This document shows, piece after piece, positions 5,553-15,293 of a DNA stretch of 64,000 nt; position 1 is the first letter of the stretch; each line of letters opens with the position of its first letter. Both the position numbers and the translations under genes were made by a program. The DNA lies in the NCBI GenBank assembly GCA_964493305.1, contig CAZBLW010000001.1, forward strand, positions 473,513-537,512, in the 5' to 3' direction. The stretch is from an uncultured Gammaproteobacteria bacterium (GTDB taxonomy: Bacteria > Patescibacteriota > Patescibacteriia > S139-126). The notes beneath the pieces were generated by a model. The model did no database searches, was not told the origin of the DNA, and saw nothing but the letters and a program-made list of their open reading frames with translations.

Positions 5553-6092
5553 ATGAGAGTTTTTATTGGTCTGAGTTTATCTAATCAATCTAAAATAATA
5601 ATAAATAACCAAGTATTACATTTTAAATCTATTCAAAATACTGGGATTAATTGGGTAAAAGCGAATAATTTACATTTAACTTTAAAATTTATTGGTGCCA
5701 TAGATAAAAATAAACTAGATATGGTGATTGATTATTTAAACCAATATTCGCACAAAAAACATCAGCTAGTAGCCCAATTTAAAAAAGTAATTTTTATACC
5801 CGCATCTAAACCTAAAATAATTGTTCTCCAGGTGAGTAGTGAATGTTTGCTAAAAATTATGACTGAACTAGATGCTGGATTGAAGGGTATTTGTCAACCT
5901 AGCAAATTTTTTACACCACATATTACTTTAGGACGTATAAAAACCAATCTCAATCCAGATTTAAAAAATTTGTTACAAAGTTTTAATTTAAATTCAGAAG
6001 AAAAATTTACCACCATAACTTTATTCGAATCAATCTTAAGTCAAAATGGCGCTGACTATAGAATTATAAAAAATTTCAATCTAAATGACTAA
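5553..6092 (+). CDS. thpR: RNA 2',3'-cyclic phosphodiesterase (2'-5' RNA ligase family, LigT/ThpR)
   Basis: Two H-x-T-x motifs are present, HLTLKFIG and HITLGRI. Length is about 180 aa. Confidence 0.75.
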   Translation: MRVFIGLSLSNQSKIIINNQVLHFKSIQNTGINWVKANNLHLTLKFIGAIDKNKLDMVIDYLNQYSHKKHQLVAQFKKVIFIPASKPKIIVLQVSSECLLKIMTELDAGLKGICQPSKFFTPHITLGRIKTNLNPDLKNLLQSFNLNSEEKFTTITLFESILSQNGADYRIIKNFNLND

Positions 6093-10742: not shown

Positions 10743-12032
10743 TCAAACAATTGTAGAAAATTTGGTATATTTTTGTAATACTTGAGGTATTTTTATTGAA
10801 CCGTCAGCTTGTTGATTATTTTCCAAAATAGCAATTAAAGTACGGCCAATTGCAAATGTGGTAGCATCATTCATGTGAACAAACTCTATTTTACCATCAG
10901 ATCTTTTGACCCTGGTATTTAAGCGTCGAGCTTGATAATCTGACATATAGTCAGCTGTGTGTGTTTCGCGATAAGTTTTTTGACTTGGCAACCAGGTATT
11001 GAGATCAATTTGTCTAGCATCAGGTGTGCCCATATCACCAGTACAAACCAAAACTAACTCATAGGGTAACTCCAATTGTTGCATCAAATATTCTTGAATA
11101 GCAATTATAAAATCTTGTTCAACTACGGCTTTTTCTGCGGTGGTAAAAGTTTCTAACTCAATTTTATCAAATTGGTGAACTCGTAAAATTCCTTTGGTAT
11201 CCTTACCATATGATCCAGCTTCGCGTCGAAAAGCTGGAGAAAGCGCTATAAACCTTTTTGGTAAATCAGATTCATTGAAGGTATGGTCCATAAACATTGG
11301 GCCGGTTGTATGTTCAGCTGAACCGATTAAATATAAATTATCTTTAGGTAAATAATATTTGTCTTCATCCCCTATTTTTAACCTACCCATTTTTTCGTAA
11401 ACTTCAGGTTTAATCATATAAGGTGGTATTATTGGTATAAACGGTTCTGGGGTTGTGGCTAAATTATTTTTTTCAATAATATTAGCCAAAATTTTTTCAT
11501 CAGTTAATACCTCAAAAGCGAAGTTTATCAGAGCAAATTGCAACCAAACTGCTTGATTTTTTAAATAATTAAATCTAGCACCCGCTACCTTAGCGGAAGT
11601 TTCAATATCAATAATATCATGCATTTTACCTAACAAAACATGATCTTTGGGTTGAAAACCAAAATCTTTCTTTTGACCCACTTGTTTAATTACTTGGTTG
11701 CCACTTTCATCTTTTCCGATTGGCACTTCCGGCAGAGTTAAATTTGGTATTTGATACAATAATGTCAAAATTTCCTCATCTATCAATCTAATTTTTGATT
11801 CATACTCACTAATCTTTTTACCTAAATCTTTTAATTTTTGGGCAATTGCCGGAGAAGGTTTAGATTTGGAAAATTTATTTTTTTCTGTTCGCCAAGTTTC
11901 TAATTCCTTTTGCAAATCCATCTTTTTTTCATAAACTGAAATCAATCTAGCTAAATCAACTTTAATATTACGATTGAAATTGTTTTTTTCAACTAATTCA
12001 ATATTATCTTTAATAAATTTTATGTCTAACAT
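10743..12032 (-). CDS. serS: Seryl-tRNA synthetase
   Basis: MLDIKFIKDN begins the N-terminal coiled-coil arm, followed by class II core motifs. Length is 429 aa. Confidence 0.9.
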   Translation of the reverse strand: MLDIKFIKDNIELVEKNNFNRNIKVDLARLISVYEKKMDLQKELETWRTEKNKFSKSKPSPAIAQKLKDLGKKISEYESKIRLIDEEILTLLYQIPNLTLPEVPIGKDESGNQVIKQVGQKKDFGFQPKDHVLLGKMHDIIDIETSAKVAGARFNYLKNQAVWLQFALINFAFEVLTDEKILANIIEKNNLATTPEPFIPIIPPYMIKPEVYEKMGRLKIGDEDKYYLPKDNLYLIGSAEHTTGPMFMDHTFNESDLPKRFIALSPAFRREAGSYGKDTKGILRVHQFDKIELETFTTAEKAVVEQDFIIAIQEYLMQQLELPYELVLVCTGDMGTPDARQIDLNTWLPSQKTYRETHTADYMSDYQARRLNTRVKRSDGKIEFVHMNDATTFAIGRTLIAILENNQQADGSIKIPQVLQKYTKFSTIV

Positions 12033-12035
12033 AAA

Positions 12036-12638
12036 TTATAATGAATTTATATCTTTAATAAGTTGTTTGACTGCATTTAAACGATGATTATATAATTTTT
12101 TTTCTTTTTTGTTAAATTCACTTAAATACTTTCCGGCTTTACCAACAAAAAAAACTGATCTGATAGGATAACCTGGTTGTACTTTAACTGATGGTTCTTT
12201 GGTGATTTCACCTTCGATTTGTCCAGTTGCCTGTAGGTATCTGGTTGTATCAGGATTATAGATGGTGACTACGGTTTTTAAAACAGCTTGTCTGTCACTG
12301 GTATTATAATTTTTCATTTTTTCTAATATTTTTTTTATTAATTCTTCATCAGTTAATACACGATCAGAACCCCAACGTCTAGTTTTAACACCAGGAAAAT
12401 TATCTAATTTGGGTATTTCTAAGCCACCATCATCTGCTAAAGTTAAAAATCCTGACAAATTAGCATAAAATTTTGCTTTATATAACGAATTGGCGGCAAA
12501 ACTATCACCCGGTTCATCAGCGGTCTGAGTTATATTTAAGTCAGCTAAGGTTACTATTGTAAAAGGATGCTGACTTAATATTTCGGTATAATCACTAATT
12601 TTAGCTAAATTATGAGAAGCAATTAATATCTTTTTCAT
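12036..12638 (-). CDS. rdgB: Non-canonical purine NTP pyrophosphatase (RdgB/HAM1 family)
   Basis: ILIASHNLAKISDY and a C-terminal QPGYPIRSVFF...YNHRLNA resemble the Ham1 fold signature. Confidence 0.7.
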   Translation of the reverse strand: MKKILIASHNLAKISDYTEILSQHPFTIVTLADLNITQTADEPGDSFAANSLYKAKFYANLSGFLTLADDGGLEIPKLDNFPGVKTRRWGSDRVLTDEELIKKILEKMKNYNTSDRQAVLKTVVTIYNPDTTRYLQATGQIEGEITKEPSVKVQPGYPIRSVFFVGKAGKYLSEFNKKEKKLYNHRLNAVKQLIKDINSL

Positions 12639-12639
12639 A

Positions 12640-14760
12640 CTATAAACCTAATTTAACATGATTTTTCTGCATAGCTTGGAGGGCTATGGTGATAATTTCA
12701 TCCAAGGGTAATTGTAAATAATCTTCAGCTTTTTGAATAATTGATCTATTAACACCAGCCGCAAAAGATTTTTGTTTAAACTTTTTTTTGACAGTATCCA
12801 AAGTTACTGATGATAAAAGTTTATCTGGTTGTACTAAAGCACAAGCAGATATAAGACCAGCCAATTCTTCGACTGAATATAAAGTTTTAGCAAGTAAAGT
12901 TGTTAATGATAATTCATGCAAATAATTGTGTGCTTTAATTGCATAAATAATTTCTGGATGCAAACCGTGTTTATTTAAAATTTTTTCTGTTTCTAAGCCA
13001 TGCAAATGTGCTTGATCTTTGGTTTGTAGATAATCAAGATCATGCAATAAACCGGCAATACCCCAAACATCTTGATTGGCGGCAAATTTATCGGCAAATG
13101 CCCTCATAATATACTCTACGGCCAAAGAATGCTTATATAAAGGATTGTCAGCTGGTATGTAACTGTCCAAAATCTTTAGTGCTTGCTGATAAGATATTCC
13201 TGGATCAGCAATAATATCAGCATCAGTAATCAAAGTGGTTGTCTGTGATTTACTGAGGGTTTTACTTTTCATTAAAGGAAATAATACATTATCTTTTAAA
13301 TTTTCCTCTTGGCTAAATAGAGTACAAATTCTATCAATACCCATCCCCCACCCGGAAATCGGTGGCAGGCCGTATTCCATCGCTTTTATATAATCTTCAT
13401 CCATCATCATCGCTTCTTCATCGCCTTGAGCTTTCAACTGACTCTGTTCCATTAATCTACTTCTTTGTTCAAATGGATCTACTAACTCCGAATAAGCATT
13501 TACTATCTCCCAACCATTAACAATTAATTGAAAACGATCGGCAATATTTTTATTGTCATCATTGGCCCGAGCCAAAGGTGACAAACTAATCGGATGATTA
13601 ATTAAAAAAGTAGGTTGTATAATTTTATCTCGAGCAACTTTTTTATATAAGGCATCAATTAAGTTTCCCATGCCTAAATTTTCTGTATTATCTAAACTAA
13701 TTTTTTCTTGCGTTATTTGTTTTAACAATTCAGTTTTATCTTTGATTTTCTCAATATCGATTTTGGTATATTTTAAAATTAAATCACGCATGGTAACAAC
13801 CGCAAAAGGTGGTTTAAAATTTAAAGTTTGCCCAAACAATTTTATTTGGTAAGTGCCAAATATGTCTAAAATAAGATCGGCGAACAAATTTTCAGTAAAA
13901 TTCTTATTATCTTCCCAATTCCAATAAGCCACATAGTATTCTAACATAGTAAATTCCTGAAGATGGGAAGGATCAATTCCTTCATTGCGGAAACACTTGG
14001 CAAATTCGAAAACTTTCTCATAACCACCGACAATGAGTCTTTTTAAGTAGGTCTCCGGAGCAATTCGTAAATAAAAATCAGCTGCTAAAGCTTGGTGATG
14101 AGTGATAAAAGGTTTAGCCAGTGCCCCAGAAGCTGTGGGAGTCAATATAGGTGTTTCGACTTCTATAAAATTATGTTGTTGGAGATAATTACGCAAAAAA
14201 TTAATAATTTTTGTTCTTTGCAAAAATTTTGCTTTTGTTTCAGGATTAACCAATAAATCTAAATATCTTTGACGATATAAAGATTCTTTATCTTTTAAAC
14301 CGTGAAATTTTTCCGGTAAAGAGCGAAATGCTTTGCCTAAAAATATATATTCATGAACCATTAAGGTAATTTCTCCTTTATGAGTTCTAAATATTTTTCC
14401 AGTTATACCAATATAATCACCTAGGTCAAAATACTTGACTAAATTATAAAGTTCAGAATTTAAGCTATCAGCTGTAAAAGCAATTTGTATTTTGCCAGAG
14501 AAATCCTGTAAATTTGCAAAGGTAATTTTACCATGTTCACGAAGTGTCATAATTCTTCCAGCCGTTGTAAAAGTAGTGCTGTCTGTGGACAATTTTTCCG
14601 CCTGAGGAATTTCATGACTATTAGCATAGTCAATTATTTCATTTATCTGGTGCTGTTTTTCAAATCTTTCCGGGTATGGATTAAAACCAGCCTTGGTCAA
14701 GCTTTTTAACTTTTCTTGTCTAATGGCGAAATCTTCAGATAAATTACTATCTTTAGTCAT
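12640..14760 (-). CDS. lysS: Lysyl-tRNA synthetase (class II) fused to a C-terminal HD-domain phosphohydrolase (YqeK/HDIG-like)
   Basis: The first ~500 aa are a complete LysRS, with an anticodon-binding OB fold and class II motifs, ending GMGIDRICTLF. The last ~200 aa contain HSLAVEY...GIAGLLHDLDY, an H...HD...D HD-domain signature. Confidence 0.85.
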   Translation of the reverse strand: MTKDSNLSEDFAIRQEKLKSLTKAGFNPYPERFEKQHQINEIIDYANSHEIPQAEKLSTDSTTFTTAGRIMTLREHGKITFANLQDFSGKIQIAFTADSLNSELYNLVKYFDLGDYIGITGKIFRTHKGEITLMVHEYIFLGKAFRSLPEKFHGLKDKESLYRQRYLDLLVNPETKAKFLQRTKIINFLRNYLQQHNFIEVETPILTPTASGALAKPFITHHQALAADFYLRIAPETYLKRLIVGGYEKVFEFAKCFRNEGIDPSHLQEFTMLEYYVAYWNWEDNKNFTENLFADLILDIFGTYQIKLFGQTLNFKPPFAVVTMRDLILKYTKIDIEKIKDKTELLKQITQEKISLDNTENLGMGNLIDALYKKVARDKIIQPTFLINHPISLSPLARANDDNKNIADRFQLIVNGWEIVNAYSELVDPFEQRSRLMEQSQLKAQGDEEAMMMDEDYIKAMEYGLPPISGWGMGIDRICTLFSQEENLKDNVLFPLMKSKTLSKSQTTTLITDADIIADPGISYQQALKILDSYIPADNPLYKHSLAVEYIMRAFADKFAANQDVWGIAGLLHDLDYLQTKDQAHLHGLETEKILNKHGLHPEIIYAIKAHNYLHELSLTTLLAKTLYSVEELAGLISACALVQPDKLLSSVTLDTVKKKFKQKSFAAGVNRSIIQKAEDYLQLPLDEIITIALQAMQKNHVKLGL

Positions 14761-14831: not shown

Positions 14832-15293
14832 CTACTTGATATCTAAAATTTTATATTTAATTTTTCCCTTAGGAATTTCAACTTCTAGAATATCACCTTT
14901 TTTTCTCCCTAAAAAAGATTGTCCCAACGGGGATTCGTTAGAAATTTTTCCTTCCTGGGGGTTTACTTCATTAGAACTGACAATTTTAAACTCGATTTGT
15001 TTATCGTTTTGACTAACTACAATGGTATTGCCCATTTCAACTTCAGTTTTATTTATACTTGAAGTATCAGCTACTGTCGCAACTCTTAATAATTCTTCTA
15101 GTTCGTTTATTTTTTTGGCAATCAATCCCTGTTCATCTTTGGCTTCCTGGTATTCTGCATTCTCAGATAAATCTCCGAGCTCTTTAGCCTCAGCTATTCT
15201 TTTAGCTAACTCGGGAATTTTTACTTTTTTTAAATGTTCTAACTCTTCCTTAATTTTTTGATGACCTTGTTCAGTTAGTAATTTATCTGACAT
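14832..15293 (-). CDS. greA: Transcription elongation factor GreA
   Basis: The N-terminal coiled coil with ELGDLSENAEYQEAKDEQ and a C-terminal FKBP-like domain are present. Confidence 0.9.
   Translation of the reverse strand: MSDKLLTEQGHQKIKEELEHLKKVKIPELAKRIAEAKELGDLSENAEYQEAKDEQGLIAKKINELEELLRVATVADTSSINKTEVEMGNTIVVSQNDKQIEFKIVSSNEVNPQEGKISNESPLGQSFLGRKKGDILEVEIPKGKIKYKILDIK

Follow-up and report, generated by a model that had tools for sequence, protein, structure and literature searches.

The 64,000-nucleotide stretch analysed here (the window: positions 473,513 to 537,512 of contig CAZBLW010000001.1, assembly GCA_964493305.1) contains a gene, here called lysS::HD, in which a class II lysyl-tRNA synthetase (LysRS) is joined in frame to a C-terminal HD-type phosphohydrolase domain. 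The fusion is real and recurs across many bacterial lineages. Its HD module comes from a large family, so far uncharacterised, whose members in most genomes are free-standing, at about 185 aa. The reading tentatively favoured is that the tethered domain hydrolyses diadenosine tetraphosphate (Ap4A) and other dinucleoside tetraphosphates (Np4N) made by LysRS.

The gene is a single open reading frame (ORF) of 706 aa, and a check of the sequence from 12640 to 14760 on the reverse strand found no internal stop codons (Table 1). A first-pass annotation made from the DNA letters had proposed one ORF here encoding LysRS plus an extension, the LysRS being complete within the first ~500 aa, and both points were borne out. 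With the NCBIfam model lysS_bact (TIGR00499) the protein reaches 558.3 bits (cutoff 427.6) over residues 8–499 (model positions 3–494 of 496), and motif 3 lies where it had been placed. Motif 2 and 3 residues are invariant across 25 full-length fusions. By these tests residues 1 to ~499 are a bona fide class II LysRS, predicted to be capable of lysylation.

The extension likewise has the HD/HDIG signature read in it at first. The strings then quoted (KHSLAVEYIMRAFA, WGIAGLLHDLDY and HLHG) are all found in the protein's C-terminal part, and the curated cutoffs of two superfamily models are passed: Pfam HD (PF01966) over residues 542–618 (E 1.3e-9, 38.8 bits vs a cutoff of 22) and NCBIfam HDIG (TIGR00277; E 3e-10, 39.7–43.2 bits vs 27.6). 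The H...HD...D ligands are present on an all-alpha fold; in the AlphaFold2 (AF2) model the domain is all-helical, with a predicted local distance difference test score (pLDDT) of 97.5. In the full-length AF2 model both modules are confident, residues 502–515 have pLDDT <50, and the overall predicted template-modelling score (pTM) is 0.68. The HD domain is thus modelled as flexibly tethered to LysRS by a linker of ~20 residues, not rigidly docked. The spacing between the two domains is 15–92 residues in simple two-domain fusions and 175–400 in those with an inserted domain.

Table 1. Features of lysS::HD and neighbouring genes in the window; residues are numbered in the fusion protein.
Feature	Window position	Strand	Basis or remark
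lysS::HD fusion gene	12640..14760	-	Single 706-aa ORF; ATG start, TAG stop 12640-12642
LysRS OB-fold anticodon-binding domain, residues 65-138	14347..14568	-	Pfam PF01336 tRNA_anti-codon, E 2.1e-14
LysRS class II catalytic core, residues 158-497	13270..14289	-	Pfam PF00152 tRNA-synt_2, E 7.5e-79
LysRS motif 2, FRNEG, residues 257-261	13978-13992	-	Sequence check
LysRS motif 3, ISGWGMGIDRICT, residues 468-480, including GWGMGIDR 470-477	13321-13359	-	Sequence check
Linker KTLSKSQTTTLITDADIIADPG, residues 500-521	13198..13263	-	Predicted disordered; sequence and length not conserved
HD/HDIG phosphohydrolase domain, residues 522-706, 185 aa	12643..13197	-	Family hidden Markov model (HMM) 253 bits, positions 2-185/185
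H544, putative metal ligand, YqeK H21 counterpart	13129..13131	-	Family-invariant; HMMER and hhalign alignment
H573-D574-L575-D576, HD dyad and invariant second Asp, YqeK H50/D51 counterpart	13033..13044	-	Aligned to YqeK dyad
H587, putative second-metal ligand, proposed YqeK H83 counterpart	13000..13002	-	Conservation; spacing differs
H611, putative metal ligand, YqeK H109 counterpart	12928..12930	-	Invariant; aligned to His of YqeK IEIHT
E631, conserved acidic residue, YqeK D127 counterpart	12868..12870	-	Aligned to Asp of YqeK VADYI
Basic motif K659-KFKQKSFAAGVN-R672, family-specific	12745..12786	-	Conserved in fused and free members
greA, directly upstream of fusion	14832..15293	-	ORF list
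Ham1/RdgB-type non-canonical nucleoside triphosphate (NTP) pyrophosphatase	12036..12638	-	Pfam PF01725, E 7e-37
serS (seryl-tRNA synthetase, SerRS), 3 nt after Ham1	10743..12032	-	ORF list

The closest relative, on a contig from JGI 3300037810 (L001), keeps the in-frame junction, with 67% identity over a 327-aa junction-spanning query, and is followed by Ham1 and then SerRS, as in the window. Within the LysRS part of this ortholog is a 1-nt frameshift (L001:1000–1030) that divides it into two called genes of 337 and 339 aa, either a sequencing error or a mark of a pseudogene. The same query retrieved 44 further proteins covering both domains from a 90%-clustered database, all N-terminally truncated and from short contigs. 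This word-indexed protein search gave only N-terminally truncated fragments, of the fusions as of YqeK, and alone would undercount them. When 1.84 billion cluster representatives were scanned exhaustively with HMMER, dozens of full-length fusions of 671–765 aa were recovered. Proteins with both domains number 92, 33 of them with a complete LysRS, and come from several lineages. Their source labels include Patescibacteria (MFA4930345.1), Candidatus Parcubacteria (PLX22187.1), Candidatus Peregrinibacteria, Peribacteraceae, Spirochaetota and Planctomycetota, as well as a gammaproteobacterial metagenome-assembled genome (MAG; L047) and a Promethearchaeota MAG. The same fusion is found in isolates of the cultured actinobacterium Parafannyhessea umbonata / Atopobiaceae (WP_078687421.1, 752 aa); in P. 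umbonata (L086:7296–10259, GCA_900108495.1) it lies directly after greA, and the precomputed Pfam annotation does not flag the HD domain. The recovered fusions are annotated in the databases solely as "lysine--tRNA ligase", and in several of them the Pfam HD model overlooks a domain that the family profile scores at 105–230 bits, which is in part why the architecture has gone unnoticed so far.

Fusion appears to have followed more than one path. In one cluster (P0265 and its members) the same HD family is found N-terminal of LysRS, and this reverse-order form must be an independent fusion. Neighbour-joining without bootstrapping places the fused HD domains in 11 separate clades made up solely of fusions, a number that is indicative only, and one clade of the tree mixes adjacent and fused forms (L068, L030 and L082 with L047, P0156 and P0214). 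The window domain groups with that of L001, nested among the free-standing proteins P0002–P0008.

The HD domain alone retrieves 483 matches in the word-indexed search, free-standing proteins of 184–194 aa with identities of up to 60%. To P0002–P0008 the window domain is 57–60% identical, and every invariant column of the family is present in it. Source databases call the family members "HDIG domain-containing metalloprotein" or "predicted hydrolase (HD superfamily)", with no functional name, and no characterised member was identified among them. In the family alignment (A1, 59 members; residues in fusion numbering) H544, H573, D574, D576 and H611 are invariant, and H587 and the acidic residue at 631 (~90% Glu; Asp in P0097) nearly so. 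H544, H573, D574, D576, H587, H611 and R672 are invariant in the 25 full-length fusions. Comparison of 84 fused with 127 free domains found equal conservation of the HD residues: H573, D574 and D576 are invariant or nearly so throughout, and H587 is kept in 100% of fused and 99% of free domains. Because the motif residues of both LysRS and HD domain are conserved, both halves look to be under selection and catalytically competent, and the HD domain is probably an intact two-metal phosphohydrolase, to judge from its predicted ligands. Toward its C-terminus is a basic motif with K659, K664, F666, A667 and R672 conserved, for which no counterpart was seen in the YqeK sequence stretches aligned or recovered; it might conceivably help to bind phosphate or RNA.

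The LysRS proteins retrieved by the junction-spanning query also include a range of sister architectures. In P0245 (1072 aa) the order is LysRS, tRNA_bind, B3_4 and HD, the insert being the N-terminal editing half of PheRS beta, and P0287 has LysRS, B3_4 and HD. A DUF2000 domain lies between LysRS and HD in P0258, P0262 and P0273, a NUDIX domain in P0257 and a HAD domain in P0260. Others lack the HD domain, with LysRS joined to B3_4 in P0271 and to DUF2000 in P0355 and P0354. Two partner themes emerge, nucleotide hydrolases (NUDIX, HAD and HD, with Ham1 downstream) and tRNA-directed modules (tRNA_bind, B3_4). DUF2000, which we take to have a fold like that of peptidyl-tRNA hydrolase 2, would belong to the second. 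In the three proteins without HD, the B3_4 (the PheRS-beta editing fold) or DUF2000 domains may be cis-editing modules on LysRS, an enzyme not known to have any. Two of the proteins with an insert before HD have peculiarities of their own. P0287 (MFX1535370.1) has a bacterial-type class II LysRS and a source label of Promethearchaeota (Asgard) MAG, which could reflect horizontal transfer or a binning error. The gene for P0257 (L083:1362–4169) contains 17 in-frame TGA codons; since several are at invariant Gly columns of LysRS, its host probably uses code 25 (TGA = Gly), in which case the database translation with Trp is probably wrong.

Gene neighborhoods were surveyed in 80 species-representative loci whose HD gene most resembles that of the window. 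The full fusion is present in one (L047). A class II lysS is upstream of a separate HD gene in five of the 80, directly in L023, L028, L051 and L082, and in L068 with a small four-helix-bundle gene between the two. In L030 (2412–4561) a gap of 6 nt separates the end of a class I (archaeal-type) LysRS gene, scoring 365 bits to TIGR00467 (cutoff 148), from a following free HD gene that belongs to the same clade as class II-adjacent and fused forms. Linkage of the HD gene to two unrelated LysRS classes is notable, the class I case being a single locus. LysRS is the most frequent upstream neighbor overall. Directly downstream of free HD genes, RNase R is found in 6/64 loci and SmpB in 2/64; upstream are an H+-pyrophosphatase (H+-PPase) in 3/62 and SNF-family transporters in 3/62. 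The surroundings of the HD gene in the 80 loci are otherwise largely heterogeneous, with no neighbor recurring beyond LysRS, RNase R, SmpB, SerRS, H+-PPase and SNF transporters. Long open frames preceding the free HD genes of L010, L012, L049 and L054 were also considered, and were set aside as probable over-extended ORFs, not fusions, since no additional domain was recognised in them. Taken with the reverse-order fusion and the several fused clades, the adjacent gene pairs support a functional LysRS–HD link that extends beyond the window gene.

In the window itself the Ham1 start codon lies 1 nt past the lysS::HD stop codon (12636–12642), and the close spacing of these genes suggests that greA-lysS::HD-ham1-serS is a tightly coupled operon. 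The greA-lysS pairing is conserved, and in L002 and L084, too, greA stands before the HD gene, which is free there. In these two relatives that gene occupies the syntenic slot of the window fusion with no lysS in front of it, so either the fusion was gained specifically in the lineage of the window or the lysS part has been lost from the relatives. The order common to all three is greA, HD, serS, an unannotated gene of ~280 aa, an M23 peptidase, GluRS and WecG; the serS equivalents in L001, L002 and L084 have the domains Seryl_tRNA_N and tRNA-synt_2b. The 64 kb are densely packed at ~32% GC. Neither a tRNA gene nor an Rfam family at gathering score turned up in scans of the window; the lysS::HD gene thus has no RNA element tied to it, and the window offers no rRNA for taxonomic placement. 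Beside WecG and GluRS the window has a gene of the LigT-like 2',3'-cyclic phosphodiesterase / 2'-5' RNA ligase family (5553–6092, forward strand); in syntenic L084 (12059–12582), WecG is instead fused to a NUDIX domain.

The extension had at first been described as closely resembling YqeK (COG1713/TIGR00488), the Bacillota enzyme that hydrolyses Ap4A/Np4N symmetrically and removes Np4 caps, likewise an all-helical HD protein of ~190 aa. Part of this likeness stands, though "closely" overstates it. When the family profile was compared with all PDB sequences, the sole significant matches were five YqeK-type structures (8jja, E 2.9e-6; 8wmy; 2o08; 2ogi; 3ccg), and hhalign matched 78 N-terminal columns to an alignment of YqeK fragments with 94% probability (E 1.3e-7). 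As those fragments are of 118 aa at most, this comparison covers the N-terminal half only, not H83, R133, F135 or F163. A single-sequence phmmer search of the PDB gave marginal or spurious matches only (YqeK at E 0.12, and caspase-4). The binuclear site of YqeK is formed by H21/H50/D127 and D51/H83/H109, with R18 and R133 contacting the substrate phosphates and F135 and F163 stacking on the bases (PMC13627108). Its counterparts in the window protein are H544/H573/E631 and D574/H587/H611. H21, H50, D51, H109 and D127 were aligned, and the predicted metal-binding His and Asp, checked in this way for H544, H573, D574 and H611, are intact; the pairing of H587 with H83, which hhalign did not align, is proposed from their order in the sequence. 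The sixth ligand is Glu here and Asp in YqeK. Other differences are plain. The dyad is within HDYAK in YqeK and HDLD(Y/W) in this family, the second-metal His is 32 residues past it in YqeK and 13 for H587, and the family's C-terminal half is distinct, with a conserved motif KKFKQKSFAAGVNR. The usual context of YqeK is nadD-yqeK-rsfS, in contrast to greA-lysS here. As far as sequence comparison goes, YqeK is the nearest solved relative of the HD domain, which is not itself a member of the YqeK family.

That the tethered domain hydrolyses Ap4A/Np4N made by LysRS is a proposal with some plausibility and well short of firm. In the LysRS active site, lysyl-AMP would be attacked by ATP or other NTPs to give Ap4A or Np4N, possibly also Np4 RNA caps. 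The HD domain would cleave these adenylylated side-products with a metal-activated water, as its distant relative YqeK does, and tethering would keep the alarmone low close to its source. The proposal draws on YqeK being the nearest characterised relative and LysRS a principal source of Ap4A; class II LysRS is one of its major cellular producers (reviews PMC7705103, PMC10148737). It draws as well on the co-occurrence of nucleotide-hydrolase modules (the NUDIX of P0257, the HAD of P0260 and Ham1 downstream) and on the acidity of the HD family (median isoelectric point, pI, 5.8), which is less typical of an RNA-binding module.

Several observations weigh against it, and some also limit the likeness to YqeK. 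The window protein has no match to the YqeK equivalog TIGR00488 at E ≤ 1, and only eight of the 59 family members match it, weakly (best E 1.8e-5; L012 scores 20 bits vs a cutoff of 70.15). By contrast, PRK12703, the archaeal Trm56-HD fusion, is matched in its HD half by 51 of the 59 (best E 3.5e-10), and RNase Y (TIGR03319) in its HD region by 46 (best E 1.1e-10). YqeK R18 and R133 are unmatched, their positions apparently taken by L541 and I637, and the F135/F163 region does not align. Foldseek gives probability 1.0 to HD proteins, with E ~1e-2 and template-modelling scores (TM) of ~0.5 to solved structures; the YqeK structures among them are only 14–19% identical, and the HD domain of the c-di-AMP phosphodiesterase PgpH (4s1c, 4s1b) ranks at least equally. 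The pattern of six ligands is shared by HDIG enzymes in general, PgpH and RNase Y among them, and does not specify Ap4A; for RNase Y the H/HD/H/H/D pattern is our own reading of its sequence. The co-fused B3_4, tRNA_bind and DUF2000 domains point to tRNA-directed functions. The L030 HD gene follows a class I LysRS by 6 nt, an enzyme not known as a producer of Ap4A. Finally, the family is found in many Bacillota genomes, and Bacillota would be expected to encode YqeK already.

Several of these points bear on the main alternative, credible if unlikely, in which the HD module acts on tRNA or RNA as a phosphodiesterase or phosphatase. It might heal the tRNA 3' end (2',3'-cyclic phosphate or 3'-phosphate), for which the HD domains of bacterial CCA-adding enzymes offer a model, or cleave or decap RNA in the manner of RNase Y; tied to LysRS, it could reach tRNA-Lys, or RNA close by, either ahead of charging or after it. 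The closest curated HMMs agree with it, since PRK12703 and RNase Y HD are matched by 51 and 46 family members and YqeK by eight. After generic HDIG, the best models are PRK12703 and TIGR00295 (archaeal HD proteins, matched by 32/59), and the likeness to Trm56-HD spans most of the domain (residues 734–884 of P0260, for example, correspond to model 172–319). Trm56-HD is also an HD domain joined to a tRNA enzyme, but its partner is a tRNA methyltransferase, not an aminoacyl-tRNA synthetase (aaRS), its HD domains are uncharacterised too, and the family scores far under the cutoffs of both models. With RNase Y only the HD core matches, over ~75 residues (model 330–402 of 514, 20–23 bits vs a cutoff of 454), and the window protein lacks its transmembrane helix, coiled coil and KH domain. 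The resemblance to RNase Y and Trm56-HD covers the generic HD core only. Also consistent with an RNA target are the tRNA-directed inserts between LysRS and HD (P0245, P0287 and the DUF2000 forms P0258, P0262 and P0273), the RNase R and SmpB genes downstream of free HD genes, and the pairing with class I LysRS, whose only common ground with class II is lysine and tRNA-Lys. There is a structural precedent in the GlyRS beta subunit, likewise an aaRS with an HD-fold domain and itself a fold match (7eiv_D); its catalytic His-Asp is replaced by Ser-Lys, and it is proposed to bind the acceptor arm (PMC8464048). The acidity of the family argues the other way, as does the plain fusion, which has no RNA-binding domain (KH, S1), and the specific pairing of a general RNA-end enzyme with LysRS would be left unexplained. 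Editing of aminoacyl esters does not suit HD chemistry.

It is distinctly unlikely that the module hydrolyses some other small nucleotide, such as an aminoacyl-adenylate, an AMP/pyrophosphate-type product, ApppGpp, (p)ppGpp or a cyclic dinucleotide, in which case the link to LysRS would concern a pull on the reaction or a different signal, not Ap4A. PgpH heads the Foldseek matches, and a dNTPase and the small alarmone hydrolase RelH are listed too; H+-PPase genes lie upstream of some free HD genes, and the NUDIX, HAD and Ham1 associations would fit equally. A precedent for a LysRS product being removed in this way is the hydrolysis of LysRS-made lysyl-AMP by HINT proteins. All of the structural matches are weak, however (TM ~0.5), no specific PgpH, RelH or dNTPase sequence signature was seen, and the sequence-profile matches in the PDB favor YqeK.

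A non-catalytic appendage, serving tRNA binding, regulation or dimer stabilisation, is very improbable. The degenerate HD domain of GlyRS beta, an aaRS domain that has lost the dyad and contacts tRNA (PMC8464048), is a precedent, but the window domain keeps all predicted catalytic residues, and the invariance of the dyad and of every putative ligand, in fused and free members, argues for retained catalysis. That an assembly error, frameshift or lost stop codon had simply joined neighboring genes could be entertained because adjacent unfused lysS-HD pairs exist (L023, L051) and the L001 ortholog is frameshifted elsewhere in the gene; it was rejected, with next to no probability left, because the junction is conserved, in frame in both the window and L001 with linkers of differing sequence and in 33 full-length fusions from independent sources, isolate genomes of P. 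umbonata among them.

The first-pass annotation had also known of no described fusion of this architecture. No description of the LysRS–HD architecture was found in the literature searched, including a 2024 paper cataloguing aaRS, so in this sense the claim holds; as sequence the architecture is not new, being already widespread in public databases, RefSeq included; in kind it is an aaRS with an appended accessory enzyme. Class II LysRS is otherwise textbook-simple, consisting of an OB domain and a catalytic core and lacking any editing or accessory domain. Parallels in kind are LysX (MprF-LysRS, PRK02983) and other bifunctional LysRS proteins, in which a class II LysRS is likewise coupled to another enzyme, one using or handling what LysRS makes. 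The window protein matches the LysRS half of the LysX model only (positions 615–1101, 469 bits vs a cutoff of 742), and LysX carries its partner, a membrane lysyl-phosphatidylglycerol synthase consuming Lys-tRNA, at the N-terminus, in contrast to the C-terminal soluble phosphohydrolase here.

The recurrent covalent and operonic link to LysRS is a strong "Rosetta-stone" clue to the role of this large HD family, and can be followed up at the bench with P. umbonata, a cultured organism carrying the same architecture (WP_078687421.1). The LysRS+B3_4 and LysRS+DUF2000 forms suggest in addition that putative editing modules have been added to some LysRS enzymes. Were a tRNA or RNA end the substrate, the fusion would represent a novel form of tRNA maintenance acting in cis on an aaRS. 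If it is Ap4A/Np4N, the missing Ap4A-degrading enzyme would be identified in lineages without a described one, and synthesis and removal would be shown to be coupled in one polypeptide. Taken together, it is possible, though we hold it with some doubt, that the LysRS-linked HD family is a new and widespread class of Np4N (Ap4A) hydrolases or Np4-decapping enzymes, beside ApaH, YqeK and Nudix, or else, as an equally novel reading, that these LysRS proteins, long regarded as free of accessory hydrolases acting in cis, carry a modular C-terminal "quality-control arm" (B3_4, DUF2000, HD) acting on tRNA-Lys. Were the first of these true, many small-genome and anaerobic lineages would have this hydrolase tethered to the main synthase, as a built-in cycle of synthesis and degradation.

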